NCBI GenBank assembly: GCA_031422435.1
Contig: JANPLU010000033.1
Coordinates: forward strand, 12,686 to 76,685
From: Acaryochloridaceae cyanobacterium VAR_48_metabat_390
Lineage (GTDB): Bacteria > Cyanobacteriota > Cyanobacteriia > Thermosynechococcales > Thermosynechococcaceae
Reading direction: 5' to 3'
DNA length: 64,000 nt
The notes under the pieces are model-generated. The model worked only from the letters and a program-made list of their open reading frames with translations, did not search any database and was not told where the DNA came from. The stretch's first letter is position 1. Every line of letters begins with the position of its first letter. Of the stretch, positions 5,735-23,652 are shown piece after piece. A program made the translations under genes and the position numbers.

Positions 5735-5746
5735 CGTCACTGGGGT

Positions 5747-6418
5747 TTAAGCGGGTGCTTCGCCTAGGCGCTGAAGCGAAATCACCGCTGAAGCTGAGAC
5801 TTGAGGATGTTCGTCTTTGCTCAGGTATTTGAGTGCCGGAACGGTTTTAGGCGAAGGTAGATTTCCCAATGCTTCGGCAAGACGCTGACGCACTAGCCAG
5901 TCTTCAGATTGGGTGAAGCGCAGGATATCTGTGACGGCATCAATGGCCTTAATTTCGCCAAGGGCGGCGATCGCAGCCTGCTGAATCACTACAGCCTCGC
6001 TGTCTAACGCTCTCACTAGGGTTTCACGGGCGCGAGGGTCTTTGAGGTTGCCTAAAGAAACTGCAGCGCTAAACTGCACCAGCCAATTGGTGTCTTCCAT
6101 GAAGGCTCGTACCAACGGCTCAAAGGCACGCTGATCTGCCAAGTAGCCTAAGGCTCCTGCGGCGGCGGCTCGAATGCTGTAGTCGGTGTCGTCGAGCAGC
6201 TTGAGCAAAATGTCGTAACACTCTGGGGTTTGCTTAATGCCGAGGGCAAACACCGCCATTGAACGAATATCTAGGCTAGGGTCGTTTAATACTTTCTTGA
6301 TCAGGGGCACCGCGTCGATGGGGGCTACATCTCGCAGCGCGACCAAGGCTAAACGGCGATCACGGGTACTGTCGCTGTCGAGCTGCTGCGAAATTTCTTG
6401 GAGCGTTGGATTCGCCAT
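5747..6418 (-). CDS. nblB: HEAT-repeat phycobiliprotein degradation protein NblB
   Basis: PBS-lyase HEAT repeats (RSMAVFALG, RAAAAGALGYL, WLVRQRLAEALG), 223 aa. Confidence 0.8.
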   Translation of the reverse strand: MANPTLQEISQQLDSDSTRDRRLALVALRDVAPIDAVPLIKKVLNDPSLDIRSMAVFALGIKQTPECYDILLKLLDDTDYSIRAAAAGALGYLADQRAFEPLVRAFMEDTNWLVQFSAAVSLGNLKDPRARETLVRALDSEAVVIQQAAIAALGEIKAIDAVTDILRFTQSEDWLVRQRLAEALGNLPSPKTVPALKYLSKDEHPQVSASAVISLQRLGEAPA

Positions 6419-6422
6419 TTTT

Positions 6423-6440
6423 GTTACAAAAATTTACTAT
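6423..6440. promoter_or_regulatory. HLR1-like (RpaB) direct repeat
   Basis: GTTACAAA-AA-TTTACTAT, one mismatch to (G/T)TTACAWW-N2-(G/T)TTACAWW, immediately upstream of nblB. Confidence 0.5.
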
Positions 6441-6464
6441 TTTTCTCAGTATAGTTCATGATTC

Positions 6465-7649
6465 TTAACGACGGCGCAAAAGCTTGCTCACCATCTTGCG
6501 TGAGAACCGGAAATGAATGTCGGATTTTTCCGCCCATTCTTGAAGCAGCCGATAGAAAAGCTGACGGTCTTCGGCTTGCAGTACCGCAACCTGGTCAGCG
6601 GTTTCGATGACGTAGGGGTAGCCATTACCGATAATAATTTCACCGCGCACATAGTCTAAAGCAGTGTTGATTAAGCTCGCCTCATGCATCCAGCGGGGAA
6701 ACTCTAGGCGAACGGGTGGATTGTCGTTGGCTTTGAGGTAGGTAAAGGTAACGCGGGTGGCCTGCTCTTCGTACTCTGCCAAAATGCCCTGTCCCCACGC
6801 ATCTCCAGGGCGATCGCACAAAAACAATGGCGTGCGATCGCCCCACTGCATTCCTGACGTTAAAAGCTGCGCGTCATTGAGGGTTGTGGTTTCGGGAAGG
6901 CTCTCTAGACACCGTAGGGTTTGGATGAGGTCACAGGCATGGGAGGTGTCGATATAGCCCACCAGCGGCACACGATACCGTTCGCTGGCGCGCAGTAAAT
7001 GAACGTACTGCTGGGCATAAAAGGTGCGGCACTCAAAATCAAAGGCTTCGGCAAAGGTGGCAATGAGTGACCCGTCAAAAAAGACGAGGCAATCTTGGCA
7101 TCTCGCGTGGTCTTCAATAAACTCAATGGCGCGTGTTACCTCCATCTCAAACCGGCGCATACTCACCTGTCGATCAAGGGAGCGCCCGTTGCGCGGCACC
7201 TGAAGTTCGGCAGGGGTCATGATGCTAAGGCGCACGTTTTTGTCGTAGATCCCCTCATCAGAATGGGCGTTCTCAAACCAGCCCACCTGCACCAGGGCAA
7301 TGGGCGGCGCAACGTCTTTGGTGGGGAAAATCTGGGAGCCGTCCACCGCAAAGGTGATGATATTGGTGAGGCGATCGCGCACCCATTCCAAGCTTTCTTC
7401 ACGGTTAGGCCACTTCAGCTTAGAGGGCACAATCCAGTTGGGATATTTGCCCAATGTCTCTAGAGGACGCGCTCCAGGATGGGCGTGATCTGACAAGATG
7501 TCGGCAATGTATGGGTCAGACTGCGCCGAGACTTTCCGCAGGGCGCGGCGATAGGCTTGATAGGTGGCGGATGCATCATGATAAAACTGCGAAAATTCTG
7601 ACTGTTTTTGATCCAGAATCTGCAAAAGATCCGAAGGTTTTAAGGGCAT
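6465..7649 (-). CDS. NurA-domain nuclease
   Basis: FAVDGSQ, FFDGSL, RLEFP, GNGYPY-x4-ADQVA motifs of the NurA family. Confidence 0.8.
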   Translation of the reverse strand: MPLKPSDLLQILDQKQSEFSQFYHDASATYQAYRRALRKVSAQSDPYIADILSDHAHPGARPLETLGKYPNWIVPSKLKWPNREESLEWVRDRLTNIITFAVDGSQIFPTKDVAPPIALVQVGWFENAHSDEGIYDKNVRLSIMTPAELQVPRNGRSLDRQVSMRRFEMEVTRAIEFIEDHARCQDCLVFFDGSLIATFAEAFDFECRTFYAQQYVHLLRASERYRVPLVGYIDTSHACDLIQTLRCLESLPETTTLNDAQLLTSGMQWGDRTPLFLCDRPGDAWGQGILAEYEEQATRVTFTYLKANDNPPVRLEFPRWMHEASLINTALDYVRGEIIIGNGYPYVIETADQVAVLQAEDRQLFYRLLQEWAEKSDIHFRFSRKMVSKLLRRR

Positions 7650-7689
7650 TGCACAATACTGTTGTGAAGGGCTAGCCCAAATTGCTTAA

Positions 7690-7857
7690 GGTTATGAATT
7701 AAATAATCTACAGAATTGCTGAGAAGCCATGCATTTTGAATGCCCTCATCCCCTAGCCCCTTCTCCCTAGGGAGAAGGGGAATTAGATGTTGCTCCCTCT
7801 CCCTAGGGAGAGGGTTGGGGTGAGGGGAATGAGTGTCGGCTATCAAACCCATGATCC
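7690..7857. mobile_element. MITE copy 1 (degenerate TIRs, internal GC-rich double hairpin)
   Basis: 168 bp; ends GGTTATGAATTAAATAA / CCCATGATCC; core nearly identical to 31597..31762. Confidence 0.75.
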
Positions 7858-7880
7858 TTCGCAAATGTAGACTACACCCC

Positions 7881-9386
7881 TTAAAGTAGCGTGTCTTCAG
7901 CGGTTTTAGACTCAATAAACGCTTCTGCCTTTGCAAAAATCTTCTGCCGCCGTTCAGCATCCATCTTGTCCAGGGTCTTCACCATCATCGATAGGCGTGG
8001 ATTGCGCTTCAGCATATCCTTTTTACGGTCTACAAAGCGCCAGTACAGTCCATCCCAGACCTCACACCAGTCACCCTTCGCATAATCACCCATTTTATTG
8101 AGATAGTTAGAACCCGACATGTAGGGCTTCGTCATCATCTGACCGCCATCGGCAAACTGTCCCATACCATAAACATTGGGCACCATCACCCAGTCAGCAC
8201 TGTCTACAAACAGCTCCATGAACCACCGAAAGACCGCATCAGGATGCACTTCTGCCAACAGCATGGCGTTACTCATCACCATCAGGCGCTCGATGTGGTG
8301 CGCCCAGCCGCGCTCCTGTACGCGCCGGATCACCTGATCGACGGGATCTAAGCCCGTGGTGCCGTTGTACCAATCTGCCGTGAGCTGCCGCTGGTGATTC
8401 AAAACGTTTTGCTGGCGCTGAGTGGGGGCGATCGCATGGTAAACGCCCCGAATATACTCTCGCCATCCAATAATTTGCCGAATAAACCCTTCCAGGGAGT
8501 TGAGGGGAATCTCATGATTTGAGGCGTAGTCCAGCGCCGCCATAACCACCTCCTGAGGGGTCAGAATACCCAAATTGAGCATAGGCGAAATGACAGAATG
8601 AAAAACGAATGGCTCTTTGGTGGAAAGTGCGTCTTCGTACAGCCCAAAGTGAACAAAGCGCTCGGTCAGAAACTGATGGAGCCAAGCTAGAGCATCTTTG
8701 TGGGTAACGGGCAGCCAAAAGTTTGCGCTCTGACCCGGATGGTCTGGAAATTTAGCGTCTACTAGGGCACCAACCGCTTTAACATGTTGAGTCTGAGCAG
8801 GGTAAGTGATCTGCGGCACCTCAATTTTTTTAGGCAGGGGCTTACGATTTTGGTCGTCGTAGCTCCACTGTCCGCCCTCTGGTTCGCCTGCTTTATCCAT
8901 TAAGATATCGAGCCGCCGTCGCTGAATCTTGTAGAAGTCGCCCATAAAGAGGCGCTTATAGCGACTGCGGTAGTCCTGAAACTGGTCATGGGTGGTCAGA
9001 AACAGGGGGCTATCGTAGGTGATGAGTTTGAGGCTGTGTGTGGCGCAGAAAGACTGGAGGCGATCGCGCATTCCGTGGTCTTCAAGCGTATAGGTGTGCA
9101 GTTCCGATGCGCCGTATTTTTGGACGGTGTGCCAAAGGTTTTCTTCGTAAGTGGGCAATCTCTCCTCAGCCATCAGCTCACAATACTCCACTGTCATACC
9201 CTTCTCGCGCAGGGCATCTCGATGATGGCGCATGGCGGCAAGAATCAGAATAAGCTTATGTTTGTGAAACTTGAAATGTGTACATAGGCTCTCATCTTCT
9301 GCCATAAACACAGGCATTTGCCGGAGCGGTAGCCTTCCATGATCTGGAAACAGCATATTGCCGAATAAAATAATCACTTCACCCAC
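7881..9386 (-). CDS. prokaryotic (6-4) photolyase / CryB-PhrB clade, apparently without the Fe-S cluster
   Basis: HKHKLILI..AMRH, PEGGQWSYD..NRK, FGLYEDA, EGFIRQIIGWREY, AHHIERLM, WVMVPNVYGM, KPY. Confidence 0.88.
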   Translation of the reverse strand: MGEVIILFGNMLFPDHGRLPLRQMPVFMAEDESLCTHFKFHKHKLILILAAMRHHRDALREKGMTVEYCELMAEERLPTYEENLWHTVQKYGASELHTYTLEDHGMRDRLQSFCATHSLKLITYDSPLFLTTHDQFQDYRSRYKRLFMGDFYKIQRRRLDILMDKAGEPEGGQWSYDDQNRKPLPKKIEVPQITYPAQTQHVKAVGALVDAKFPDHPGQSANFWLPVTHKDALAWLHQFLTERFVHFGLYEDALSTKEPFVFHSVISPMLNLGILTPQEVVMAALDYASNHEIPLNSLEGFIRQIIGWREYIRGVYHAIAPTQRQQNVLNHQRQLTADWYNGTTGLDPVDQVIRRVQERGWAHHIERLMVMSNAMLLAEVHPDAVFRWFMELFVDSADWVMVPNVYGMGQFADGGQMMTKPYMSGSNYLNKMGDYAKGDWCEVWDGLYWRFVDRKKDMLKRNPRLSMMVKTLDKMDAERRQKIFAKAEAFIESKTAEDTLL

Positions 9387-9615
9387 TCAAAGATGTGATC
9401 AATCGTAAGCTCGATTGCCGAGGCAAAAACTGAAACAGGCAGCAGCGCAATGGCTTCAGGTAATCAACGCGCTTGTACTCTCACTATAGCTTTACAAAAA
9501 TAGAGACTGGCGTTGGAGACAGCATGTTGCTAGACCACATAGTCATGCATCATCGTGGCGTAATTTAAGTGTCTCTAAAAATTTCTCTGGGCTGATGAAC
9601 TACCCATCACCCTTG

Positions 9616-10287
9616 TTACCCTATCACCAGCCCATCTTTGACGTGAATCGTGCGCTGCGTTTTAGCGGCAATGTCCGGCTCGTGGGTCACAATCACAATC
9701 GTAATGCCCTGACAGTTTAACTCCCCCAGCAGGCTCATTACCTCTTCTGAAGTTTCGGTATCTAAGGCTCCAGTAGGTTCATCAGCAAGGACAAGCGCCG
9801 GACGGTTGACAAGGGCACGGGCGATCGCCACGCGCTGCTGCTGGCCCCCAGAAAGCTGATTAGGGCGATTGAACAGCCGCTCCGTCAAGCCCACTCGCGT
9901 GAGAGCCTCCTCGGCACGGGCACGACGCTGGGGCTTAGGGATGCCTGCATAGACCATCGGCAGCATCACGTTATCTAGGGCAGTTGAGCGGTTGAGTAAA
10001 TTAAACTGCTGAAACACAAAGCCAATGCGCTGATTACGGATGTAGGCCAACTCGTCATTATTGAGAGTGGTCAAACTGCGGCCTTCTAAGATGTAGTGTC
10101 CATCCGTAGGACGATCCAAGCAGCCCAAAATGTTCATCAAGGTTGATTTACCAGAGCCAGAGACACCCATAATGGCAACGTATTCACCTTCTTCAATGGC
10201 GAGGTCAATCCCTTTGAGAACGGGCACGTCTACCTCGCCTAGGCGATAGGTCTTGATGATGTCCTCCATCCAAATCATGTTTACCAT
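9616..10287 (-). CDS. ABC exporter ATP-binding subunit (MacB/DevA/LolD-like)
   Basis: [27 protein letters not shown]; start set at MVNMIW to avoid overlapping the permease. Confidence 0.92.
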
Positions 10288-10292
10288 GATGG

Positions 10293-11555
10293 CTAATCGC
10301 TCCGTAAGGCCGTAATGGGGTCCAATTGAGAGGCATTGCGAGCCGGAATCACCCCCGCGACTAAGCCCACGACTAAAGCCAAAGCTAGTCCCGCAAAGAT
10401 AGACCATAGAGAAATTACAAAGGGAAATTTAAACGAGATTGAGGCTACAAACGCCAAACTGACTCCCATTGCCACGCCAATAGCACCACCCGCCAAAGAC
10501 ACCATGATGGCTTCTGCCAAAAACTGGCTTAAAACGGCGCTGTTGGTCGCCCCAATCGCCTTACGAATACCAATTTCGCGGGTGCGCTCTACTACCGAAA
10601 CCAGCATGATATTGGCAATGCCGATGCCGCCCACGACCAAAGAGATTCCGGCGATCGCACTCACCAAAACCGTGAACAGCCCCACCACGCTGCTAAAGGT
10701 GTTGATAATATCAATCTGACTGCTGATGCGAAAGTCATCAGGATTCGGCGGAAAAATACCGTGGCGAATCCGCAGCACGTTTGTTACCTGAAACTGAGCG
10801 GCCTCAAGCTGAGACTGATCTGCCGCCTTAATCCAGAATCCGCTAATGGCGGTGCCATTGAGAGAAGCATTTCCCACAATTTGGGCTGACATGGTGGTGA
10901 GCGGTACATAGACGCGGTCATCCTGATCCTGTCCGCCGACAGAACCCTTGGGTTCCATCACCCCCACCACGCGATAGCGTCCAGCCTGAATCCGGACGCT
11001 TTTCCCAATGGGGGTTTCTCCCGCTGCAAACAAATCGTCTTTTACCTTGCTGCCCAGGATTGTGACAGGCTCAGCATTGTTGAGATCGTCCTGAGTAAAA
11101 AACTGCCCTTCTTTCGGCTTAATTTCTTTTACGTCAGAGTAGCTCAAATCCACACCCAAAATGGAGGTAGAGCTGTTTTGCTCTTCATAAACCACCTGTC
11201 CACCCCGCTGCAAAAAGGCCGTCACAGCCTCTGCTGCTGGAGACTGCTGGGCGATCGCCTGAGCATCTTCCCACGTCAAGGTGGTGGCAGACCCAGACCC
11301 TTGGCTAATGCCACCCGAACGCGCTGCGCCCGATATCACCAGCATAACGTTGGTCCCCAACGCCTGAATTTGCTGTTCGGTGCCTTTCTGTACACCCTGT
11401 CCTACAGACGTCACCATGATGACCGAGGCAATGCCAATGATGACCCCCAGCATGGTGAGGCTAGTGCGAAGGCGATTGCTCCAAAGAGCCTCCACGGCCA
11501 TAGTCACAATTTCTAAAAATGAAATTTTAATGGTGCGAATGCGCTGGGTTTTCAT
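10293..11555 (-). CDS. ABC exporter permease (MacB/FtsX family)
   Basis: RTSLTMLGVIIG, GGIGIANIMLVSVVERTREIGIRKAIGA. Confidence 0.92.
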   Translation of the reverse strand: MKTQRIRTIKISFLEIVTMAVEALWSNRLRTSLTMLGVIIGIASVIMVTSVGQGVQKGTEQQIQALGTNVMLVISGAARSGGISQGSGSATTLTWEDAQAIAQQSPAAEAVTAFLQRGGQVVYEEQNSSTSILGVDLSYSDVKEIKPKEGQFFTQDDLNNAEPVTILGSKVKDDLFAAGETPIGKSVRIQAGRYRVVGVMEPKGSVGGQDQDDRVYVPLTTMSAQIVGNASLNGTAISGFWIKAADQSQLEAAQFQVTNVLRIRHGIFPPNPDDFRISSQIDIINTFSSVVGLFTVLVSAIAGISLVVGGIGIANIMLVSVVERTREIGIRKAIGATNSAVLSQFLAEAIMVSLAGGAIGVAMGVSLAFVASISFKFPFVISLWSIFAGLALALVVGLVAGVIPARNASQLDPITALRSD

Positions 11556-13108
11556 TAAAGTCCACCGCCCCTTCGCCTACCGCCACCGCCGCCACCACTG
11601 TCTAACCCAGGAATTACTGAAGGGGTGCGAGAGACGGGACGTTCCCCTTGGGGAAAGTTGAGAAGAACGCGATCGCCAACCGATAATCCAGAAGTGACCA
11701 CGGTTTTGCCTTCAACACTGACCCCTGTGACAATCGGCGTAAGACTAGAGCGATAACGATTGCTTTTACCGCTCCGCTCACGACCACCACTGCCAGCAAG
11801 ATACACCCCAGTGCCCTCAGCCTGCCGCACAATTGCCACAGTGGGCACCACCAGCGCATTTTTAAGAGTGCCGATATTAAATTTGGTATTAACGTTCATG
11901 CCCGATCGCAGCAGGTTTTGCGGATCGACTACCGAGGTTTGAACCTGAAAGTTCGTGACGTTTTGATCAACCGTTGACTGGGTGGCAACCTGGGTCACAA
12001 TGCCCTTAAAAAACTTGCCGGAATAGGCATCGGCCTCGATGGTGACAGGTAGCCCTACCTTTATTTTAGGAATGCTGGTTTCGGGTACTTTTACCACCAC
12101 TTCATTATTGGAGGCGACGGACAAAATTGAAGAGGACGTTGCCGAAGAAATGGTGCTGCCAGAGGTGGTTGGCGTTACGAAGGAGCCAGGGTCAGCAAAC
12201 TTACGGGTGACAGTGCCACTAAAAGGGGCGCGAATGACCGTATCGTTAATCTGCGTTTGGATGGTTTTGAGAGCGCCTTCGCTATTCAAAATCTGAGCGC
12301 GAGCGGCTTCAATATCTTCAGAACGCGCCCCTGCCGCCTGAAGACTGAGCGCCTGTTTAGCCTGCTCAACTTGAGCGCGGGCTGCGGCAATATCTTCAGG
12401 GCGAGAGCCAGATCGCTGCAGGCTAAACGCCTGCCGATTTTGCTCAACTTGGGCACGAGCCGTATCAAACGTTGCGCGGGAGGTATCCAAGTCTCTTAGG
12501 GCGATCGCCCCTGCGGTATAAAGCTGCTGATTTTGACGATAAGTCACTTCTGCCTGTCGCAGCGTCGCCTGGGCAGAACTAAGCTGCGCCTGGGATTGAG
12601 CCACATCTTGAAAACGATTGCCTGCCAAAAGCTTAGTTAAATTGGCTTGGGCAGAACTAAGCTGCGCCTTCGCCTGCGCCACCTCTTGAGGGCGATTGCC
12701 AGCCAGCAATTTATTCAAAGCCGCTTGCGAAGATGAGATCTGTGCCTGCGCCTGAACAAACTGTCCCTGAAAATTAGAGTCATCCATATAGGCCAGAATT
12801 TGGCCTTTCTCAACGCGATCGCCCTCTTTAACCAAAAGCTGTTTCAAAACGCCAGAATTTTTAGGGCTGACATTAACAGACTTATCAGGCTGTACGGTGC
12901 CGTTGGCCGTAATGGTAACGGGTAAATCTAACTTCTGTACAGTTGCCGCCTGAATTTTGCGACTGGCTTCTTGACGCTGAGCCGTCGAGATTTGGCTATA
13001 GACAACATAGCCTGCGATCGCCAATAGCCCTAGGCAGACAAATCCGATCACCCCTTTGGGAAGACGGGAAAGCTCAACCCCTTTAAGCTTAGTCCAGTGA
13101 AGTGCCAA
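11555..13108 (-). CDS. efflux periplasmic adaptor (MacA/HlyD/DevB family)
   Basis: N-terminal TM, lipoyl-like LLVKEGDRVEKGQ, long coiled coil, IRAPFSG; GGAGG RBS before the TTG start. Confidence 0.9.
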   Translation of the reverse strand: MALHWTKLKGVELSRLPKGVIGFVCLGLLAIAGYVVYSQISTAQRQEASRKIQAATVQKLDLPVTITANGTVQPDKSVNVSPKNSGVLKQLLVKEGDRVEKGQILAYMDDSNFQGQFVQAQAQISSSQAALNKLLAGNRPQEVAQAKAQLSSAQANLTKLLAGNRFQDVAQSQAQLSSAQATLRQAEVTYRQNQQLYTAGAIALRDLDTSRATFDTARAQVEQNRQAFSLQRSGSRPEDIAAARAQVEQAKQALSLQAAGARSEDIEAARAQILNSEGALKTIQTQINDTVIRAPFSGTVTRKFADPGSFVTPTTSGSTISSATSSSILSVASNNEVVVKVPETSIPKIKVGLPVTIEADAYSGKFFKGIVTQVATQSTVDQNVTNFQVQTSVVDPQNLLRSGMNVNTKFNIGTLKNALVVPTVAIVRQAEGTGVYLAGSGGRERSGKSNRYRSSLTPIVTGVSVEGKTVVTSGLSVGDRVLLNFPQGERPVSRTPSVIPGLDSGGGGGGRRRGGGL

Positions 13109-13579: not shown

Positions 13580-16500
13580 ATGAAAATTCTTCAAACTCAA
13601 ACCCTCCGAGGACCCAACTACTGGAGCGCTCGCCACTCCAAACTCATTCTGGTGCGACTGGATTTAGAAGGGTTAGCCGATAAACCTTCAAGCGCCCTGT
13701 CTGGATTCTATGACGGGATTGCGGCAATATTACCCAGCCTTGAGGCACATATCTGCGCGCCAGGATGTCGCGGTGGCTTTCTGAGCCGCGTGCAGGAAGG
13801 CACCCTAATGGGACACATTTTCGAGCGCGTGGCGCTGGAACTTCAGACCTTAACCGATATGTCCGTGGGGTTTGGCTGCACCCGCGAGACCACAACACCA
13901 GGCATTTTCCATGTTGTCATTGAATATGAAGCTGAGACGGCGGGTCGCTATGCCACCAGAGCGGCACTCCGTCTGTGCCAAAGCATTGTAGATACAGGCA
14001 CTTACTCTAAAGCCGAGCTAAGCAAAGATTTAGATGACTTGGCTCGGCGGCGCCGCCGAGCTACTTTGGGCGCAAGCACTGAGGCGTTGGTACGGGAAGC
14101 AGAAAATCGCAGCATTCCCTGGACACACTTAAAAAGTAGCGACCTATTTCAGTTGGGCTACGGCAAATATCAAAAACGGGTTCAGGCTGCACTAACCTCC
14201 CACAGCAGTGTCCTGGGAGTGGAGGTAGCCTGCCATAAGCAACAAACCAAAACGCTTTTAAAAAGTATGGGAGTACCCGTCCCATTAGGGATAGTGGTCT
14301 ACGCCTTCAGAGATTTAGAAAAGGCGATTGACCAACTGGGCGGCTATCCCATTGTCATTAAGCCTTTAGATGGCAATCACGGTCGAGGCATTACTATCAA
14401 TATCCAGTCTTGGAAACAGACCAAAATTGCCTATGATTGCGCCCGTGACATTTCTAATGGCGTGATTGTCGAACATTTCTATCAGGGGCGAGATCACCGA
14501 ATTTTGGTGGTCAACCATAAAGTTGTCGCAGTGGCGGAGCGGGTACCTGCTCATGTGGTCGGTGATGGACATTCAACCATCGCACAGCTCGTTGAGCAAG
14601 AAAACCAAGATGACCGTCGGGGCGAGGGTCACGATAATGTACTGACCCATATAGAGCTGGATAATGCAACGGATGAAACGTTAAGAAGTCAAGGCCACAC
14701 CCTCAATACTATTTTGCCGCCAGCCCAAATCTGCTACCTCCGAGCAACCGCCAATCTGAGTACAGGCGGGATCGCCATCGACCGCACAGACGAAATCCAT
14801 CCAGAGACCGTGTGGCTAGCGGAACGCGTATCTCGCATTATTGACCTGGACGTAGCGGGCATTGATGTGATTACAACCGATATTACTAAGCCCCTCACCG
14901 AGGCGGATGGCGTAATTGTAGAAGTGAATGCAGCCCCAGGGTTGCGGATGCATATAGCGCCTAGTCAAGGAGTAGGACGCAACGTGGCGGCACCCATTAT
15001 GGATATGCTGTTTCCACCTGGAACGCCAACACAAATCCCAATTGTGGCGGTGGCAGGTACGAATGGCAAAGCAGCGCCCACAACCCTCATCGCCCATATT
15101 TTTAGTCAGGTTTATAAAGAGGTAGGCTTTACAACCTCTGATGGAATTTATATCGGCGATCGCCCTCTTAAAACCATCAACCCTTCAACTTCTCAACACG
15201 CCCAGGTTATTCTGCAAGATCCAACCGTAGAGATTGCGGTTTTAGAAACAACGCAGGATGAGATTTTACAGTCAGGTCTAGCCTTTGAGCACTGTGATGT
15301 GGGCGTGGTTTTGAATGTAGCGGCAGATCAGTTGGGGTTAACGAACCTCAACATCATCAACCCACTCACCCGAGTAAATGCGGTCATCGCTGAGACGGTA
15401 CACCCTAATGGCTACGCCGTACTCAATGCGGATGACCCACAGGTTGCAGCAATGGCTAGACAGGTGGGGGGAAAAGTCGCTTATTTTTCAATGAATTCAG
15501 AGAATCTGGTGGTGCGATCGCACATTCAGCGAGGAGGCATTGCCGCAGTCTACGAAAAGGGACACCTGTGCATCTTGCAAGAAGACTGGGTTTATCAGAT
15601 TGAGCATGTTGCGCAAATCCCCAACGCATTGGGTGGCTGCACACCTTATCTTATTGCCAATGCCCTCGCAGCAAGCCTAACAGCCTTTGTTTTAGGGGTA
15701 AAAGTAGAGCAGATTCGGTCGGCACTGCGCAGCTACACCACCTCAGCTTGGCAAACCGTAGGGCAAACCACTTTATTCAACCTTAATTACTATGACTGCG
15801 AGCGAATTAAGCCGTATTTAGACCTCAAAGACGAAACGATTCCAACTCAAGGAGAACTAAAGCTCAGTCCGTCGCCTGTATTGATCCATTCCAATTCGCT
15901 GCCGCCTCTTGCTGCCTCTATGGAGCTTGAGAGCGCGTTGCGGCATACAAGCCAAACGCATGAAATCCCTCAGGAGCATTCGCTACACGAGAGGGTGCTA
16001 GCAGCAGTAGGTTCACATTCTGCAGCGGCTGTCTTAAACGGGAGTAGAGCGTTTGATACTCCAAGAATTGAGCCAAAACCGACTGAACCAGCCCATCACG
16101 TTCATCACAAGAAAAACACTCACGCTGAGCCATCACAGTCCAAAAAGGTCTTTGCTAAGTCCAAACCGCGCAGCTTTAAGGCATGGGTCGCCGAGGTTGT
16201 TTCCAACGTGGTGCAGAAGACTGTTAAAGAGGCTTTTAACTTAGGGGAAGTAGTGGGTACTACTGCGATCGCCGTTAGTCGCGTAGCGGCAGAGATGGCA
16301 CTTGAGAAAAGCAAAGAACTAGCGAAAACCGTCTGGAAAAAATTCCAAACAGCGACTCAGCTAGTCGATTCAGCCACCCTCGACCCAGCACTTCAGGATG
16401 TTATGGTTCTGTGGGGCAAAGATGGGCGATTTGTAAACGAACTGTTCATCTTTCAACAAACCTATACAGGCGTCGACGTTTATCTCAAGAATGGTACCCC

Positions 16501-16612
16501 TGTTTATATAGATGGAAAGTTAAATTCCCGTATAGATGGTCGCTTCAGTTTTGCGTTAAGCCAGATTCCTGAGAATATCGCCAAGGTCAAAGAACATCCT
16601 CATTATCCGTAA
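13580..16612 (+). CDS. cyanophycin synthetase paralog: intact ATP-grasp domain, degenerate Mur domain, unrelated C-terminal extension
   Basis: Colinear with cphA1 for 738 codons; P-loop GTNGKAAP; no DYAHNP lid; 1010 aa from ATG 13580. Confidence 0.9.
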   Translation: MKILQTQTLRGPNYWSARHSKLILVRLDLEGLADKPSSALSGFYDGIAAILPSLEAHICAPGCRGGFLSRVQEGTLMGHIFERVALELQTLTDMSVGFGCTRETTTPGIFHVVIEYEAETAGRYATRAALRLCQSIVDTGTYSKAELSKDLDDLARRRRRATLGASTEALVREAENRSIPWTHLKSSDLFQLGYGKYQKRVQAALTSHSSVLGVEVACHKQQTKTLLKSMGVPVPLGIVVYAFRDLEKAIDQLGGYPIVIKPLDGNHGRGITINIQSWKQTKIAYDCARDISNGVIVEHFYQGRDHRILVVNHKVVAVAERVPAHVVGDGHSTIAQLVEQENQDDRRGEGHDNVLTHIELDNATDETLRSQGHTLNTILPPAQICYLRATANLSTGGIAIDRTDEIHPETVWLAERVSRIIDLDVAGIDVITTDITKPLTEADGVIVEVNAAPGLRMHIAPSQGVGRNVAAPIMDMLFPPGTPTQIPIVAVAGTNGKAAPTTLIAHIFSQVYKEVGFTTSDGIYIGDRPLKTINPSTSQHAQVILQDPTVEIAVLETTQDEILQSGLAFEHCDVGVVLNVAADQLGLTNLNIINPLTRVNAVIAETVHPNGYAVLNADDPQVAAMARQVGGKVAYFSMNSENLVVRSHIQRGGIAAVYEKGHLCILQEDWVYQIEHVAQIPNALGGCTPYLIANALAASLTAFVLGVKVEQIRSALRSYTTSAWQTVGQTTLFNLNYYDCERIKPYLDLKDETIPTQGELKLSPSPVLIHSNSLPPLAASMELESALRHTSQTHEIPQEHSLHERVLAAVGSHSAAAVLNGSRAFDTPRIEPKPTEPAHHVHHKKNTHAEPSQSKKVFAKSKPRSFKAWVAEVVSNVVQKTVKEAFNLGEVVGTTAIAVSRVAAEMALEKSKELAKTVWKKFQTATQLVDSATLDPALQDVMVLWGKDGRFVNELFIFQQTYTGVDVYLKNGTPVYIDGKLNSRIDGRFSFALSQIPENIAKVKEHPHYP

Positions 16613-16658
16613 GGAAAAATTGAGCTAATACTGCGATAGAGAATCCTAGATTTGTTGG

Positions 16659-16694
16659 CAAAACCTGCCTCCACAAAACCTGCCCCCACAAAAC
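16659..16694 (+). repeat. 15-bp tandem repeat (2.4 units)
   Basis: CAAAACCTGCCTCCA CAAAACCTGCCCCCA CAAAAC. Confidence 0.8.
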
Positions 16695-16769
16695 ATTGTC
16701 TTTGTAGACTCAATTAAACTTGGGCTTTGCTTCAGCACAGTGATATTATGCAGCTCTTAGGATTATTTT

Positions 16770-17624
16770 ATGCCTGAGGTAAAACCTCTCCTAGCGCAAC
16801 AGTTTATGGCAATTTCAACCCAGTATCCAGTAATGGTTATTGGTGGAGCAGAAGACAAAGTCAACGGGTGCAGTATATTAACCGCTTTCTTTCAAAGTGC
16901 TGGTGGGGCGTTGGCGAAAATCGGCATCATCCCCTGCGCTTCGCAAGAACCCAGTGTCGTTGGTGATCGCTACTACCAGATCTTTGAGAACATGGGCGCT
17001 CAAAAAGTTCAGGTGCTTGATATTCGGCAGCCTCAAGAGTGTGATACAGAGGGCTGGCTCAATATCTTGGCAGACTGCACCGGTATTTTTGTCACCGGAG
17101 GCGATCAGGTGCGCCTATGTGACCTGATTGGCGGCAGCAAATTTATCGACTCTATTAAAACCAGGGTTAAGCTTGGCACTCTCGTATTGGCAGGCACCAG
17201 CGCGGGTGCTGCCATCATGGGTGAAAAGATGATTGCAGGCGGCAGCAGCGGAGAATCGCCCAACCAGCTATTGGTAGACCTGATGGACGGTTTAGGGATT
17301 TTTCCTGAACTGCTCGTCGATCAGCATTTTCATAATCGCAATCGCATGGCTCGACTGATGAGTGCGATCGCCGCCCATCCAGAAAAACTCGGCATGGGTA
17401 TTGATGAAGATACCTGTGCCGCGTTTGAAAAAGATGGAACCTTTGAAGTGATTGGCAAAGGAACGATTACCATCATTGATCCCGGCAGTTTGACCCATAC
17501 GAACCATCCTGAAGTTGCCGATCTCTCCCCCATCAGCCTGCATAACCTGACCGTACATGTGTTGAGCCAGGGCGATCGCTATCACTATCAACGCCGAAAG
17601 GTCTTGTCGCCCACTGAATCCTAG
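16770..17624 (+). CDS. cphB: cyanophycinase
   Basis: IGGAEDK, TGGDQ, GTSAGA (catalytic Ser), DQHF, RNRMARL, GIDEDT. Confidence 0.96.
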   Translation: MPEVKPLLAQQFMAISTQYPVMVIGGAEDKVNGCSILTAFFQSAGGALAKIGIIPCASQEPSVVGDRYYQIFENMGAQKVQVLDIRQPQECDTEGWLNILADCTGIFVTGGDQVRLCDLIGGSKFIDSIKTRVKLGTLVLAGTSAGAAIMGEKMIAGGSSGESPNQLLVDLMDGLGIFPELLVDQHFHNRNRMARLMSAIAAHPEKLGMGIDEDTCAAFEKDGTFEVIGKGTITIIDPGSLTHTNHPEVADLSPISLHNLTVHVLSQGDRYHYQRRKVLSPTES

Positions 17625-17676
17625 AGACTGAGCAACCCTCACGATTACCAGCATTGACGTCTGCCAATTCATGTCA

Positions 17677-17692
17677 TGTAGCCATTAATACA
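17677..17692. promoter_or_regulatory. NtcA-binding site
   Basis: TGTA-GCCATTAA-TACA, a perfect GTA-N8-TAC, between cphB and cphA1. Confidence 0.7.
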
Positions 17693-17820
17693 GAACTAGG
17701 CATTCACTTTGAAATTAATTAAGGTTTAAACCTCAAGCTGCTCAAAGCAACGTTGGACTCTCTAGACCTCGGCTTTGTCTTAAGCATCCTGTGAAACTCG
17801 CAGAGACTATCTCTACCTTT

Positions 17821-20526
17821 ATGAAAATTCTCCAAACCCAGACGCTCCGAGGCCCCAACTACTGGAGCATCCGCCGCTCAAAGCTCATTCTGGTGCGACT
17901 GGATTTAGAGGAGCTAGCCCATAGCCCTTCAGATACCCTGCCTAGTTTCTATGACGGCCTTGTGGCGGCGCTACCTAGCCTCGAAGAACACTTTTGTTCT
18001 CCAGGCTGTCGGGGTGGATTTTTAAGCCGGGTCAAGGAAGGCACCATGATGGGGCACATCCTGGAGCATGTGGCGCTGGAGCTTCAGACCTTAGCCGATA
18101 TGCCCGTAGGGTTTGGTCGCACCCGCGAGACGGCAACGGATGGGGTCTACCAGGTTGTCATTGAGTATCAAAATGAGGAGGCAGGGCGCTACGCGGCAAG
18201 GGCGGCACTGCGACTTTGTCAGAGCATTGTAGAGACAGGCGCTTATCCCAAAGAAGAGCTGGAAAAAGATTTAGATGACCTGGCTCAGTTGCGGACTGAA
18301 GCGATCTTGGGCGCAAGCACTGAGGCGCTCGTGCGCGAAGCCGAAAATCGCGGCATTCCCTGGACGCATTTAGAAAGCTGTGACCTGTTTCAGTTTGGTT
18401 ACGGAAAGCATCAAAAGCGGGTTCAGGCTGCACTCACCTCCAAGAGCAATATTCTGGGGGTAGAGCTGGCCTGTAATAAAGAAAATACGAAAAATATTTT
18501 GACCCAGTTTGGGGTTCCCGTCCCCTTGGGCAAGGTGATCTACGCATTTAGTGAGCTAGAAGAAACGATTGAGCAGCTAGGAGGCTATCCCGTTGTCATT
18601 AAGCCCTTGGATGGCAATCATGGTCGCGGCATTACCATTGATATCCAGTCTTGGGAAAATGCGGAAGTGGCTTACGACCGTGCCCGTGATGTCTCTAAAG
18701 GCGTGATTGTAGAACACTTCTACCAAGGGCGAGATCACCGAATTTTAGTCGTCAATCATAAGGTTGTTGCCGTTGCGGAGCGGGTACCTGCCCATGTAAT
18801 CGGCAACGGAATCGCCACTATAAAAGAGCTAGTTGAGCAAGAAAACCAAGATGACCGTCGGGGCGAAGGTCACGACAATATGCTCACCCATATTGAGCTA
18901 GACGACGCTACGGACGAAATGATGCATCGTCAAGGGTTTACGCTAGACACCGTTTTGCCCCCAGGTCAAATCTGCTATTTACGGGCAACCGCCAATCTGA
19001 GTACGGGCGGGATCGCCATTGACCGCACGGACGAAATTCATCCAGAGACGGTTTGGGTTGCAGAACGCGTGTCTCGCATTATTGACCTGGACGTAGCAGG
19101 TATTGATGTCATTACAACCGACATTACCAAGACCCTCGCGGAAGCGGATGGCGTAATTGTGGAGGTGAATGCAGCACCCGGCTTACGGATGCATATTGCA
19201 CCCAGTGAAGGAGTGGGACGAAACGTCGCAGCACCCATCCTCAATATGCTGTTTCCTCCTGGAAAACCCAATCGGGTTCCGATTGTGGCAATCACGGGAA
19301 CCAATGGCAAAACTACTACCACTCGACTGATTGCCCACATCTTCAGTCAGGTGTATGAGTTTGTGGGCTTTACCACCACTGACGGTATCTACATCGGTCG
19401 TCACCTCGTCGAAAAGGGTGACACTACGGGGCCACAAAGCGCCCAGATCATTCTGCAAGACCCGACGGTAGACATTGCAATTTTAGAGACGGCACGGGGC
19501 GGCATTTTGCGATCGGGTCTTGCCTTTGCCCACTGCGATGTGGGGGTGGTCTTAAATGTGGCGGCGGATCACTTGGGCTTGGGCGATATCAACACGATTG
19601 ACCAAATGGCAAAGGTCAAGGCAGTAATTGCAGAGGCGGTTCACCCCGATGGCTATGCCGTGCTGAATGCCGATGACGAGCGGGTTGCCGCAATGGCAGA
19701 CTACGTGCCTGGAAAAATTGCCTATTTTTCGATGGATGCTGATAACCCGTTAGTGCGATCGCATGTTCAGCGCGGGGGCATTGCCGCAGTCCTCAAAGAG
19801 GGCTATCTGGCGATTTTGCAGCAGGACTGGGTTCACCGCATTGAAAAGGTCGAGCTGGTGCCCCTCACCCTGGGCGGACGCGCACCGTTTATGATTGCCA
19901 ATGCTCTGGCGGCAAGTCTGGCAGCGTTTGTGCAGGGTGTGAAAGTTGAGCAAATTCGCGCCGCCCTTCGCAGTTTCCGGGCTTCGGCGGAGCAGACGCC
20001 GGGACGCATGAATTTATTTAACTTGGGTCACTATCATGCGCTGGTAGACTACGCCCACAACCCAGCCGGATACGCAGCGGTGGGCAGCTTTGTTAAAAAC
20101 TGGTCTGGCCCTGCCATTGGCGTGGTTGGCGGCCCTGGCGATCGCCGTGATGAAGATTTGATTGAGTTAGGCACACTGTCGGCAGGCTTCTTTGAGCAGA
20201 TTGTGGTGAAAGAAGATGACGACAATCGGGGTCGCCCTCGCGGCAACGCAGCGGAGCTGATTGTGCAAGGGATTCATACTGCCGCCACGGAAGATAACGT
20301 GCCAGTCCCACACACAGTTCAATTATCAGAAACAGAGGCGATCGCCTGGGCTTTAGATAACGCGCCCAAAGATGGTTTGGTGGTGATCTTTCCTGAAAGC
20401 GTGAGTCGGGCGATCGAGATTATCATGGCGCGTAACCCCATTTTGGATGATGCAGAAGCCGCCTTTTTCGCAGAATTGAAGACTGAGAAATGGCCTGCGT
20501 TTACACCCCAGTGTTCGCTCCCTTAA
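17821..20526 (+). CDS. cphA: cyanophycin synthetase CphA1
   Basis: HFC..GGF..R..HILEH N domain; KPLDGNHGRG, EVNAAPG; GTNGKTTT, ETARGG, DHLG, PGRMN, DYAHNP, PGDRR all intact. Confidence 0.97.
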   Translation: MKILQTQTLRGPNYWSIRRSKLILVRLDLEELAHSPSDTLPSFYDGLVAALPSLEEHFCSPGCRGGFLSRVKEGTMMGHILEHVALELQTLADMPVGFGRTRETATDGVYQVVIEYQNEEAGRYAARAALRLCQSIVETGAYPKEELEKDLDDLAQLRTEAILGASTEALVREAENRGIPWTHLESCDLFQFGYGKHQKRVQAALTSKSNILGVELACNKENTKNILTQFGVPVPLGKVIYAFSELEETIEQLGGYPVVIKPLDGNHGRGITIDIQSWENAEVAYDRARDVSKGVIVEHFYQGRDHRILVVNHKVVAVAERVPAHVIGNGIATIKELVEQENQDDRRGEGHDNMLTHIELDDATDEMMHRQGFTLDTVLPPGQICYLRATANLSTGGIAIDRTDEIHPETVWVAERVSRIIDLDVAGIDVITTDITKTLAEADGVIVEVNAAPGLRMHIAPSEGVGRNVAAPILNMLFPPGKPNRVPIVAITGTNGKTTTTRLIAHIFSQVYEFVGFTTTDGIYIGRHLVEKGDTTGPQSAQIILQDPTVDIAILETARGGILRSGLAFAHCDVGVVLNVAADHLGLGDINTIDQMAKVKAVIAEAVHPDGYAVLNADDERVAAMADYVPGKIAYFSMDADNPLVRSHVQRGGIAAVLKEGYLAILQQDWVHRIEKVELVPLTLGGRAPFMIANALAASLAAFVQGVKVEQIRAALRSFRASAEQTPGRMNLFNLGHYHALVDYAHNPAGYAAVGSFVKNWSGPAIGVVGGPGDRRDEDLIELGTLSAGFFEQIVVKEDDDNRGRPRGNAAELIVQGIHTAATEDNVPVPHTVQLSETEAIAWALDNAPKDGLVVIFPESVSRAIEIIMARNPILDDAEAAFFAELKTEKWPAFTPQCSLP

Positions 20527-20619
20527 ATGCTGGTCAATAATAAGGGTATTGGCGTTTGATACTGCAATACCCTGGCCTATAAGCCGAGGATTAATACTCA
20601 GTCCTCAGGAGATTGTTTG

Positions 20620-23600
20620 ATGATTTTGAACCCATCCCGTTCCAGCGCCGGGTCTTCCTTTTCGACCACTTATGAAGATCAGACCCAAGTGATCGCCCAC
20701 CAGCTCCTAGCAGAAACGACCGAAAAGCGATCGCTCTTTGCGAAGGTGCGAGATCAGTTCCGTTGGGATGACAAGCTCCTCAGCTGGACAATGGATAACC
20801 CCGCGTTGCGGGTGCAGCTTTTTCGCCTGATCGACTGTTTACCCTCGCTGACCACCAAAGCCGAAATTGCCCGTCACCTCCAAGAATACTTAAGCGATGG
20901 AGCGGTGGAACTCCCCCAAGCACTTAAAGGGCTGCTCAACTTTACCGCTGCCGACTCCATGCCAGGGCAGGTCGCGGCAACCACCCTTTCGACCGCCGTA
21001 GAAACCCTAGCGCGTAAATACATCTCTGGCGAAACCCTAAAACAGGCGCTCAAGAGCATCGGGCAGCTTCGCAGGCAGTCTATGAGCTTCACTATGGATC
21101 TCTTAGGGGAAGCCGTGGTGACAGAAACAGAAGCCCAAGCCTATCTCGATCAGTATTTAGCGCTAATGGCGCAGCTTACAGAAGCATCTAGGCAGTGGTC
21201 AGCCGTGCCCCAAGTGGATAGCGCCGATGGGGTAGATGTTGCCAAAGTGCAGGTTTCCGTCAAGCTTACGGCGTTTTATTCTCAGTTCGATCCGCTGGAC
21301 GTTAAAGGTTCCCAGGCCAAGGTGAGTGATCGCATTCGCATCCTCCTGCGTAAAGCACGGGAAGTAGGCGCAGCGGTGCATTTTGACATGGAGCAGTATC
21401 GCTACAAAAATGCAACTCTAGAAACCCTGAAGCAGCTCTTGATGGAGGACGAATTTTGCGATCGCACCGACATCGGCATCACCCTGCAAGCCTACCTGCG
21501 AGATAGCCACCAAGATTTACAGGACTTAATCGCGTGGGCGAAACAGCGGGGCAAACCCATCACGGTAAGACTAATCAAAGGAGCCTATTGGGATCAAGAA
21601 ACCATCATCGCGCGTCAGAACCATTGGTCTACGTCTGTCTATAATCACAAGTCTTCAACCGACGCTAACTTTGAGCGCATGACGCAGCGGCTTCTAGAAA
21701 ACCATGAGGTGCTTCACGCCGCGATTGGTAGCCACAACGTCCGTTCTCAGGCGCACGCTATTGCGATCGCCACAGCCCTAAACATACCCAAGCGCCACAT
21801 CGAGTTTCAAGTCCTCTACGGCATGGCAGACAACCTCGCCGCCGCCCTCGCCAAACGGGGACATCGGGTGCGAGTTTACTGTCCCTATGGACCGCTGATC
21901 CCAGGCATGTCTTACCTGATTCGGCGACTGCTGGAAAATACCGCCAACAGCTCTTTTCTAAAGCAAAGCGTGGGGGATCATCCCACGGAGGGGTTATTAG
22001 CAGTTCCCGTTTGGGGAGAAGGCGATGAAGACGGGAGCAGCAACCCACCCATGCCCATTGCCTCCGCCGCCGTAACCGTGACTCGAATCAATCCCTCGGC
22101 AGATACCGATTGGGCGATTGCCCAGTATCGTTCCGATGCGGCAACTGCGTTAGCCTCGGTAAAGCAGCAGCTAGGGCAATCTTATCTACCGCTGGTTAAC
22201 GGCGAGCGGGTACAAGCCTTAAAAACCATTGAGTCCGTGAATCCCTCCAATCCGGCTGAGGTGGTGGGCACTATTGGACAGATGGATATCGGGCAGGCTG
22301 ACCAGGCGATCGCCGCAGCCAAAGCGGCCTTTGTAACCTGGAAGCAAACCCCTGTCGCAGAACGCGCCGCCATTTTGCGTCGCGCCGCAGATTTACTCGA
22401 AGCGCGCCGCCATGAGCTGAACGCCTGGATGGTGTTTGAGGCAGGTAAACCGCTCCAACAGGCCGATGTAGAAGTCTCAGAAGCCGCAGATTTCTGTCGG
22501 TACTACGCCACAGAAATGGAGCGCCTAGACGCAGAAATTGTCTATGACGTAGCAGGGGAAAGCGATCGCTACTTCTATCGTCCCAAGGGCATTGTGCTGG
22601 TCATTTCGCCCTGGAATTTCCCTCTGGCAATTCCCACGGGCATGACCGTTGCTGCCTTGGTGACGGGCAACTGTGCGCTGCTTAAGCCTGCCGCTACAAC
22701 CGCCGTCATTGCGGCAAAGCTGTGCGACATCTTAGTAGAGGCAGGTATCCCCAAAGGGGTGTTTCAGTACATTCCCTGCGGTGGCTCCACGGTGGGGACT
22801 CATCTAGTCAAACACTCCGACGTGCAGATGATTGTATTCACGGGTTCCCAGGAGGTCGGTTGCCAAATCTACGCCAATGCCGCCATTCTGCAACCAGGGC
22901 AAAAGCACCTGAAGCGCGTGGTGGCAGAAATGGGTGGCAAAAACGCCATCATCGTAGATGAAAGTGCGGATTTGGATCAGGCGGTGCAGGGAGTTGTGTA
23001 TTCTGCCTTTGGCTACAGCGGTCAGAAGTGTTCTGCCTGCTCTCGTGTAGTGGTGCTAGCGCCCATTTACGATGCCTTTGTAGCGCGGCTGGTAGAAGCA
23101 ACTCAATCCTTGAATGTCGGAGATGCCGCCGACCCAAGCACAAAGGTTGGCCCTGTAATTGACAGTGCGGCACAGCAGCGCATTCGTGAAACCATTGCCA
23201 AGGGCAAAACTGAAGCCAATCTCGCCCTAGAACTACCTTCCCCAGAACCAGGCTATTTTGTTGGCCCTGTGATTTTTACGGATGTAGATCCGCAGTCTAC
23301 TCTTGCCCAAGAAGAAATCTTTGGCCCCGTGTTGGCAGTGATGAAAGCTGAGAATTTTGAGGAAGGATTGGCGATCGCCAACAATACAAACTACGCACTC
23401 ACGGGCGGTCTATACTCTCGCACACCCTCCCACATTGAACAGGCCAAAGCAGAACTTGAGGTGGGCAATCTCTATATCAATCGCACTATTACGGGGGCGA
23501 TCGTGGCAAGACAGCCCTTTGGGGGGTATAAGCTATCGGGGGTGGGTTCCAAAGCGGGTGGACCAGATTATTTGCTGCAATTTCTAGACCCGCGCACGGT

Positions 23601-23652
23601 GACAGAAAACATTCAGCGACAGGGGTTTGCGCCCATTGAAGGGATGGAGTAA
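20620..23652 (+). CDS. putA: bifunctional proline dehydrogenase / P5C dehydrogenase
   Basis: DLLGE, DMEQY, RLIKGAYW, YLIRRLLEN; ISPWNFP, FTGS, EMGGKN, GQKCSAC, EEIFGP. Confidence 0.95.
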   Translation: MILNPSRSSAGSSFSTTYEDQTQVIAHQLLAETTEKRSLFAKVRDQFRWDDKLLSWTMDNPALRVQLFRLIDCLPSLTTKAEIARHLQEYLSDGAVELPQALKGLLNFTAADSMPGQVAATTLSTAVETLARKYISGETLKQALKSIGQLRRQSMSFTMDLLGEAVVTETEAQAYLDQYLALMAQLTEASRQWSAVPQVDSADGVDVAKVQVSVKLTAFYSQFDPLDVKGSQAKVSDRIRILLRKAREVGAAVHFDMEQYRYKNATLETLKQLLMEDEFCDRTDIGITLQAYLRDSHQDLQDLIAWAKQRGKPITVRLIKGAYWDQETIIARQNHWSTSVYNHKSSTDANFERMTQRLLENHEVLHAAIGSHNVRSQAHAIAIATALNIPKRHIEFQVLYGMADNLAAALAKRGHRVRVYCPYGPLIPGMSYLIRRLLENTANSSFLKQSVGDHPTEGLLAVPVWGEGDEDGSSNPPMPIASAAVTVTRINPSADTDWAIAQYRSDAATALASVKQQLGQSYLPLVNGERVQALKTIESVNPSNPAEVVGTIGQMDIGQADQAIAAAKAAFVTWKQTPVAERAAILRRAADLLEARRHELNAWMVFEAGKPLQQADVEVSEAADFCRYYATEMERLDAEIVYDVAGESDRYFYRPKGIVLVISPWNFPLAIPTGMTVAALVTGNCALLKPAATTAVIAAKLCDILVEAGIPKGVFQYIPCGGSTVGTHLVKHSDVQMIVFTGSQEVGCQIYANAAILQPGQKHLKRVVAEMGGKNAIIVDESADLDQAVQGVVYSAFGYSGQKCSACSRVVVLAPIYDAFVARLVEATQSLNVGDAADPSTKVGPVIDSAAQQRIRETIAKGKTEANLALELPSPEPGYFVGPVIFTDVDPQSTLAQEEIFGPVLAVMKAENFEEGLAIANNTNYALTGGLYSRTPSHIEQAKAELEVGNLYINRTITGAIVARQPFGGYKLSGVGSKAGGPDYLLQFLDPRTVTENIQRQGFAPIEGME

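Follow-up and report, generated by a model that had tools for sequence, protein, structure and literature searches.

Cyanophycin is a nitrogen-storage polymer for which two types of synthetase, CphA1 and CphA2, are established, and these enzymes are studied for their unusual, non-ribosomal way of making a polymer as well as for producing that polymer. The 64,000-nucleotide stretch of DNA analysed here (the window; positions 12,686 to 76,685 of contig JANPLU010000033.1, assembly GCA_031422435.1, from Acaryochloridaceae cyanobacterium VAR_48_metabat_390) carries three genes of cyanophycin metabolism in a row on the plus strand: a cphA-like variant at 13580-16612, given the working name X, with residues counted from its MKIL start; the cyanophycinase gene cphB at 16770-17624 (TIGR02069, 296.7 bits against a cut-off of 126.6, plus Peptidase_S51); and cphA1 at 17821-20526, encoding a complete cyanophycin synthetase 1 that starts with ATG, runs to 901 aa from MKIL, has three intact sites and scores 1203 bits with TIGR02068 over model positions 1-860 of 862. 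X is a CphA1-derived paralog whose G domain is intact, whose sites for adding Arg and for cutting primers are degraded, and in which the lid of the M domain (Mlid) is replaced by a linker predicted to be disordered and a tail related to proteins of conjugative elements.

From its N terminus, X consists of an N domain (residues 1-160; 13580-14059; PF18921), an ATP-grasp or G domain (161-487; 14060-15040), the core of the M domain or Mcore (488-722; 15041-15745), a remnant of the first Mlid residues (723-738; 15746-15793), a linker (739-865; 15794-16174), a helical tail segment of the KAW...AIAWEKF type found in the X sequences inspected (866-926; 16175-16357), and a C-terminal alpha/beta domain made of one helix, four strands and two helices (927-1010; 16358-16609), all on the plus strand. 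The frame begins with ATG and reaches a stop codon after 1010 aa; translation probably does not begin at an in-frame GTG further upstream (13553), because the aligned stretch in two related genomes (G001 and G007) contains TAG. BLASTP aligns X to the adjacent CphA1 with 550/740 identities (74%) and 0 gaps, the homology stopping at residue 738 in the count from MKIL (747 in P0001). The TIGR02068 model recognizes X at 946.2 bits (cut-off 850), yet only its positions 1-730 of 862 are covered. An initial annotation, made from the bare sequence, had described both the gap-free alignment and the intact 1010-aa reading frame, and on both points it was right.

The M-domain motifs of X read GTNGKAAP, TINPSTS, ETTQDE, DQLG and VGQTT, whereas 30/30 CphA1 rows (aligned sequences) from relatives retain GTNGKTTT, GD.TGP, E.ARGG, DHLG, PGRMN, DYAHN and GDRR. 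The CphA1 M-site features lost in X are the Mg ligand after the P-loop Lys, the glycines of ETARGG, the His of DHLG and the Arg of PGRMN, which is Gln in the Mlid remnant. The PF08245 match to Mcore stands at 56 bits versus 90 in CphA1; the fold is kept and the ATP/substrate site degraded, and the predicted local distance difference test score (pLDDT) of an AlphaFold2 (AF2) model is 85-93 across residues 600-720. CphA1 goes on into Mlid (TeCphA1 residues 724-876, with the ATP-contacting Arg731 and His748), instead of which X has 272 aa of linker and tail: Pfam gives no Mur_ligase_C match (PF02875) in X, though it does in CphA1, and DYAHNP and PGDRR are absent as well. Over 32 X rows, the PGRMN Arg is kept in none and Mlid is absent from every one. 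The altered M-domain motifs and the missing lid, both noted in the initial annotation, are thus confirmed; what it lacked were the degraded N-domain site and the foreign tail.

In CphA1, primers are made by the N domain at a cryptic metallopeptidase site with the motif Cx19HxxEH (PMC9262961, drawn on here, like the other papers cited below, from its accessible parts). This motif is complete in 30/30 CphA1 rows. In the window's X it reads C...HIFER, its second His (His83) being replaced by Arg; at least one of the four residues is lost in 8/8 genome-derived X rows, and all four are retained in only seven of the 32 X rows, the other 25 having lost the site. Because Mlid, M-site residues and His83 are gone, X is predicted to be unable to add Arg or to cut primers. 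The M-domain losses, taken with the effect of deleting Mlid in TeCphA1 (PMC9427784), also predict that X forms no cyanophycin from Asp, Arg and ATP. In the G domain, six motifs of six match those of the neighbouring CphA1 letter for letter, as had been claimed, and the catalytic and Asp-binding residues checked (for their roles, see PMC9427784) are all present, namely His267, Arg309, the Asp-binding Arg323, Asn394 and Arg458 in TeCphA1 numbering. Eight of eight X rows keep the R of RDHR, the R of VAERVP, the N and S of NLSTGG, and both the G and the R of APGLRMH; their large loop, ATANLSTGG, is of the CphA1 type. In CphA2 rows the APGLRMH Arg is replaced by F, Y or L (3/3), and the residue at the His267 position also differs. 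Changing His267 to Ala lowers activity in TeCphA1 and SuCphA1 (PMC9427784, accessible parts); this His is kept in 22/32 X rows, among them the window's X, and is Gln in 10/32. One X-type database protein of 942 aa (P0038) is missing about 70 G-domain residues (the G-omega part, including NLSTGG) and reflects either degradation of the gene or a faulty assembly.

The C-terminal 272 residues of X comprise the linker, the helical segment and the alpha/beta domain. The linker, which occupies the place of Mlid and varies in length and sequence between X rows, is predicted to be disordered, pLDDT staying below 50 in the full-length model (residues 723-901) and in a model of the tail (residues 3-71). 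The tail helices are predicted with low to middling confidence, and the alpha/beta domain, found in 25/32 X rows, has pLDDT above 90 over residues 95-170 of the 175-aa tail model. The full-length AF2 model (42 sequences; mean pLDDT 60; predicted template modelling score 0.39; G domain badly modelled) is uninformative on whether the tail docks to the body. The last 280 residues of X have no Pfam match even at E <=10, and the tail is without a match in Pfam, NCBIfam or PDB sequences; its stand-alone relatives fall in no Pfam or NCBIfam family. For the tail there was likewise no usable ESM Atlas match and, for its fold, no Foldseek match at E <=0.001 in PDB or BFVD; the best VIA-align for the tail domain has a Z of 4.2 and a root-mean-square deviation of 4.0 over 63 aligned residues.

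Both tail segments, the helical one and the alpha/beta domain, have homologs at the C-terminal ends of stand-alone proteins 390-500 aa long, with 43-55% identity and E values of 6e-39 to 1e-28 among the best seven tail matches (1.8e-36 and 1.1e-33 to stand-alone frames). These proteins form an unnamed family (for example P0010, P0012; G022:C329, G001:C125) which has both segments in common with the X tail and, unlike X, stands alone, with an N-terminal domain of its own and mostly a G-F/L-x-R end. Their genes adjoin those for a TraG/VirD4 coupling protein, a TrwC relaxase-helicase, an AAA ATPase and an M23 peptidase, and this genomic context is that of a conjugative element. The tail is rare: it has 31 matches at E <=0.001 among 1.84 billion representatives, and is found in 8/401 sampled genomes of the class, every one of them in the window's own family. 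The stand-alone relative P0010 had no match in the plasmid collection. Stand-alone members, whose N-terminal domain is conserved and many of which carry the G-F/L-x-R end, lie at L046 1-1245, L047 1012-2364, L055 6779-9421, L056 6387-7604 and L058 5067-6437, and there are nine matches in genome G005.

The descent of X was examined in trees that are all quick searches, with support from SH-like approximate likelihood ratio tests (SH-aLRT) only. With all 738 columns, 29/30 X rows form one clade (SH-aLRT 99) that is sister to the CphA1s of the genus, and the same 29 rows are grouped on Mcore minus 28 trait columns (SH-aLRT 94). A branch of 4.1-4.4 changes per column, with support of 100, separates off the CphA2 rows, and X is nested within the CphA1s of its family. 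Its best solved relative is SuCphA1 (7LG5; 1006 bits over residues 1-738), followed at a distance by the CphA2 structures 7TA5 (246 bits) and 8FXH (222 bits), and its identity to the CphA2-type frames of relatives is 33%. Derivation of X from CphA1, outside CphA2, is supported, in keeping with the prediction of the initial annotation that X would fall outside the CphA2 clade. That annotation had also taken X for a recent CphA1 duplicate: descent from CphA1 stands on the identities, the trees and the bit scores, and recency does not. A recent duplication is rejected by the synonymous divergence (dS) between X and CphA1 within genomes, at about 0.9-1.9, by orthologs in two genera (9/48 genomes), and by further database clusters.

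X-type frames, defined as frames of about 950-1130 aa with homology past residue 748 or with the tail present, were found among 41 related genomes in G000-G004, G007 and G009, which belong to the window's own genus, and in G017 from a second genus; a scan of all 48 genomes of the family adds G299, so that X occurs in nine of 48 genomes and two genera, while being absent from three of the ten genomes of its own genus. About 24 further database clusters belong to X, all annotated "cyanophycin synthetase" (NCBI gives names for two, Altericista sp. CCNU0014 and Acaryochloris thomasi RCC1774), and the clade comprises at least 32 proteins from two genera of one cyanobacterial family. Each of the nine X-bearing genomes also has a complete or partial cphA1, and the order X-cphB-cphA1, the recurrence of which had been proposed as a check, is contiguous and on one strand in five of them (G000, G002, G003, G007 and G009); in G299, X follows putA and lies no more than 13 kb from cphA1. 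The X reading frames are intact in the 8/8 genome copies examined. CphA2-type frames occur in only three of the 41 related genomes, and in none of the eight that bear X among those 41. Retention of the M-domain motifs differs by subclade: P0058 has all the N, G and Mcore motifs, the P0047-P0051 group most of the M motifs, and the G017/P0059 group nearly none. P0058, a tail-bearing CphA of 1072 aa known as a database protein, has its junction directly after RSFQAS; it represents an early intermediate or else arose through a separate, independent fusion to a tail of this family, and a search of genome contigs for related loci that might give its context returned nothing.

Selection was gauged from NG86 estimates of dS and of omega (dN/dS). 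Between X orthologs, omega is 0.08-0.10 in the G domain, 0.09-0.25 in the N domain, 0.13-0.17 in Mcore and 0.23-0.44 in the tail; for the CphA1 orthologs of the same genomes (residues 1-738) it is 0.03-0.07. The dS between X and CphA1 within a genome is 0.7-1.4 overall. From these values X is under constraint everywhere, about two to four times weaker than CphA1, and it is old; the per-domain comparison suggested by the initial annotation thus gives purifying selection throughout and not the picture of a decaying duplicate. The constraint was then resolved by site, taking the positions invariant or nearly so in 29 CphA1 rows, scoring them in 30 X rows, and counting a site as lost where half of these rows or more differ. 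In the G domain, 108 of 127 such sites are kept in at least 29 of the 30 X rows and none is lost; the N domain retains 45 of 83 and has lost five, and Mcore retains 46 of 104 and has lost 21. The Mcore losses are concentrated in six ATP/substrate motif windows (19/39 inside versus 2/65 outside), a degradation that exceeds chance, although its significance is overstated by windows partly picked after seeing the data and by the relatedness of the rows. Outside its active site, Mcore is as conserved as in CphA1, which fits the part that this module plays in the accessible portions of the TeCphA1 study, where Mcore contacts the N domain and three Gcore modules and so builds the tetramer, Mlid being mobile and peripheral (PMC9427784).

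Measured against the two known systems, X shares with CphA1 (TIGR02068; solved as SuCphA1, 7LG5, and TeCphA1, 7WAC) the succession of N, G and Mcore and the catalytic and Asp-binding residues of the G domain. With CphA2 (GcCphA2, 7TA5; StCphA2, 8FXH) it has in common an inactive, lid-less M domain and the lack of the N motif (PMC10273328 and PMC9262961, accessible parts), as well as derivation from CphA1, by an origin separate from that of X. Unlike X, CphA2 has about 640 aa, as against 1010 aa with a foreign tail and a full-length Mcore, and the G-site residues of X are of the CphA1 type. The CphA2-like state ascribed to X in the initial annotation therefore describes its dead M site and, in most members, its dead N site, but not its live G site, which is CphA1-like down to the APGLRMH Arg. 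A subfamily resembling X is not mentioned in what the literature search covered, which included the accessible parts of PMC10273328, PMC9262961, PMC9427784, PMC10206079 with supplements and PMC8949462, several key papers being beyond reach; "CphA3" in the literature searched denotes Aeromonas beta-lactamases only.

The reading to which we incline, with a little less than even confidence, is that X would be an Asp-adding or chain-end-binding partner of CphA1, its lid swapped for a linker and a conjugative-element tail, its Arg-ligase and primer-cutting sites degraded and its G domain intact. One duplication of cphA1 in an ancestor of the two genera would have come first, and then a 3' fusion in which Mlid was lost and Arg ligation immediately with it; from then on, the residues of the Mcore ATP site and of the N site would have drifted, differently in each subclade. 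The initial annotation had seen an Arg-ligase site selectively erased, motif by motif. The changes are better read as decay after replacement of the lid, because all 32 rows are without Mlid and the PGRMN Arg while the other M motifs vary, P0058 keeping those of Mcore, and because deletion of Mlid strongly lowers the activity of TeCphA1 (PMC9427784, accessible parts). Mcore would stay constrained because it builds the tetramer in CphA1 (same source), and X would for that reason still assemble, with itself or with CphA1. It would probably join such oligomers or share the same granule; there its G domain would add one Asp to a (beta-Asp-Arg)n end, the M domain of CphA1 would then add Arg in trans, and the tail would tether or place X, or supply a partner.

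Several observations weigh against this account, some touching the history of X and others its function. On the N and G columns alone, X splits into three to four groups beside the CphA1s of their hosts; in that tree, X as one clade needs four changes, and a branch with support of 97 splits it. P0058, with its different junction, is placed apart from the X clade, and several independent origins of X are possible, that of P0058 most of all. We ascribe the conflict with the whole-length tree to gene conversion between the paralogs. In G009 (L036; X at 5150-8086, cphA1 at 9263-12055), the two genes share identical G-domain tracts of 134, 54, 50 and 47 nt within codons about 309-470, a clear footprint of conversion between tandem paralogs. 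Over N and G, the identity of the window's X is 78-88% with its orthologs and 72-86% with the CphA1 beside it; over Mcore, the values are 75-95% and 60-75%, respectively. Conversion also means that part of the identity of the G motifs may stem from it. As for function, X in G004 and G017 has no linkage to cphB-cphA1, being on a separate contig, and the alpha/beta part of the tail is lacking in 7/32 rows. His267 is Gln in the three closest orthologs (G001, G003 and G007), and with Gln at this position in 10/32 rows, catalysis may not be the conserved function. A G-only enzyme with the specificity of CphA1 would, moreover, stall after one Asp, and its benefit is doubtful.

If the G domain were not catalytic either, X would be a pseudoenzyme, a cyanophycin-binding scaffold or regulator within CphA1 oligomers or granules, to which the tail brings placement, clustering, or control of growth or breakdown. 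We regard this as unlikely, if a serious contender: X has lost two of its three active sites, its acquired tail is conserved, the loss of only 2/65 Mcore sites outside the active site fits a role in assembly, and omega in the G domain is 0.06-0.08 between the three Gln-bearing orthologs, as though this domain were held in place even where His267 has gone; yet a scaffold needs no retention of all ATP-grasp catalytic and Asp-binding residues across a dS above 1, His267 is kept in 22 of the 32 rows, the window's X included, and Gln there may still support catalysis.

X might also be a CphA2 by convergence, a polymerase with one working site that would turn the beta-Asp-Arg set free by the downstream-encoded cyanophycinase back into cyanophycin. 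Its dead sites are those of CphA2 (an inactive M domain, no Mlid, no N motif), it lies directly upstream of cphB, and none of the eight X-bearing genomes has a CphA2-type frame, an absence that carries little weight given the presence of such frames in only three of the 41 genomes. The G domain nevertheless points elsewhere, with none of its 127 CphA1-invariant sites changed in at least half of the X rows, and with ATANLSTGG and the APGLRMH Arg of the CphA1 type, the three CphA2 rows all differing at that Arg and at His267. TeCphA1 deprived of Mlid, or mutated in its M domain, shows no CphA2 activity (PMC9427784, accessible parts), and we judge this alternative improbable, while noting that the determinant of dipeptide specificity in CphA2, called "subtle, cryptic" by the authors in the accessible parts of their report (PMC10273328), is such that sequence cannot settle dipeptide activity. 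That X is a functionless duplicate in decay, as its stepwise site loss and its absence from 3/10 genomes of the genus could suggest, is very hard to credit with frames intact in 8/8 genome copies, at least 32 members, omega of 0.08-0.17 over a dS of up to 2, and a G domain as conserved as in CphA1.

Around the three genes, a few further features deserve mention. No cphA homolog other than X and cphA1 is present in the window's own genome (3.7 Mb in 136 contigs, 99.99% complete), and nifD was not found there above the cut-off; CphA2 is reportedly a feature of N2-fixing cyanobacteria, to go by the title of a 2016 paper by Klemke. Downstream of cphA1 lies putA (20617-23652, plus strand), encoding proline dehydrogenase and P5C dehydrogenase, and in G299 putA (L059, G299:C9 11585-14695) is directly upstream of X on the same strand. 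Some cyanobacteria break down arginine via proline and PutA, and the linkage of putA to the cyanophycin genes may be functional. The spacer between cphB and cphA1 contains, at 17678-17691, the sequence GTAGCCATTAATAC, which matches GTAN8TAC, presumably the NtcA-type consensus; the window has eight such matches versus 5.4 expected by chance. Promoter-like and terminator-like sites show no excess, their counts being at or below shuffle expectation. Further upstream, a 300-aa frame bears a weak ATP-grasp likeness to the G domain of X (28% identity, E 5.6e-7, match at 5135-5446, G000:C33:17820-18131) and is probably a RimK-like or GshB-like ligase.

Members of the X clade carry the plain label "cyanophycin synthetase", so that functional synthetases counted from genomes come out too high in this lineage. 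A bolder proposal, which the sequence comparisons allow and which we hold doubtful, is that X would constitute a third, independently evolved class of single-site synthetase, created by a lid swap from a conjugative element, that caps or extends chain ends with Asp at a place or with a partner set by its tail, and in this way controls granule growth and the access of cyanophycinase in non-diazotrophs, unlike CphA1 or CphA2. The clade amounts to a natural experiment in which a CphA1 was again reduced to its G domain, independently of CphA2, and its surviving intermediates (P0058 and the P0047-P0051 group) point to a history in which the lid went first and the M and N sites decayed afterwards. 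Its tail is an uncharacterised mobile-element domain recruited into a storage-polymer enzyme, and X offers a direct test of whether a G domain of the CphA1 type works without an M domain of its own, and of mixed oligomers among synthetase paralogs.

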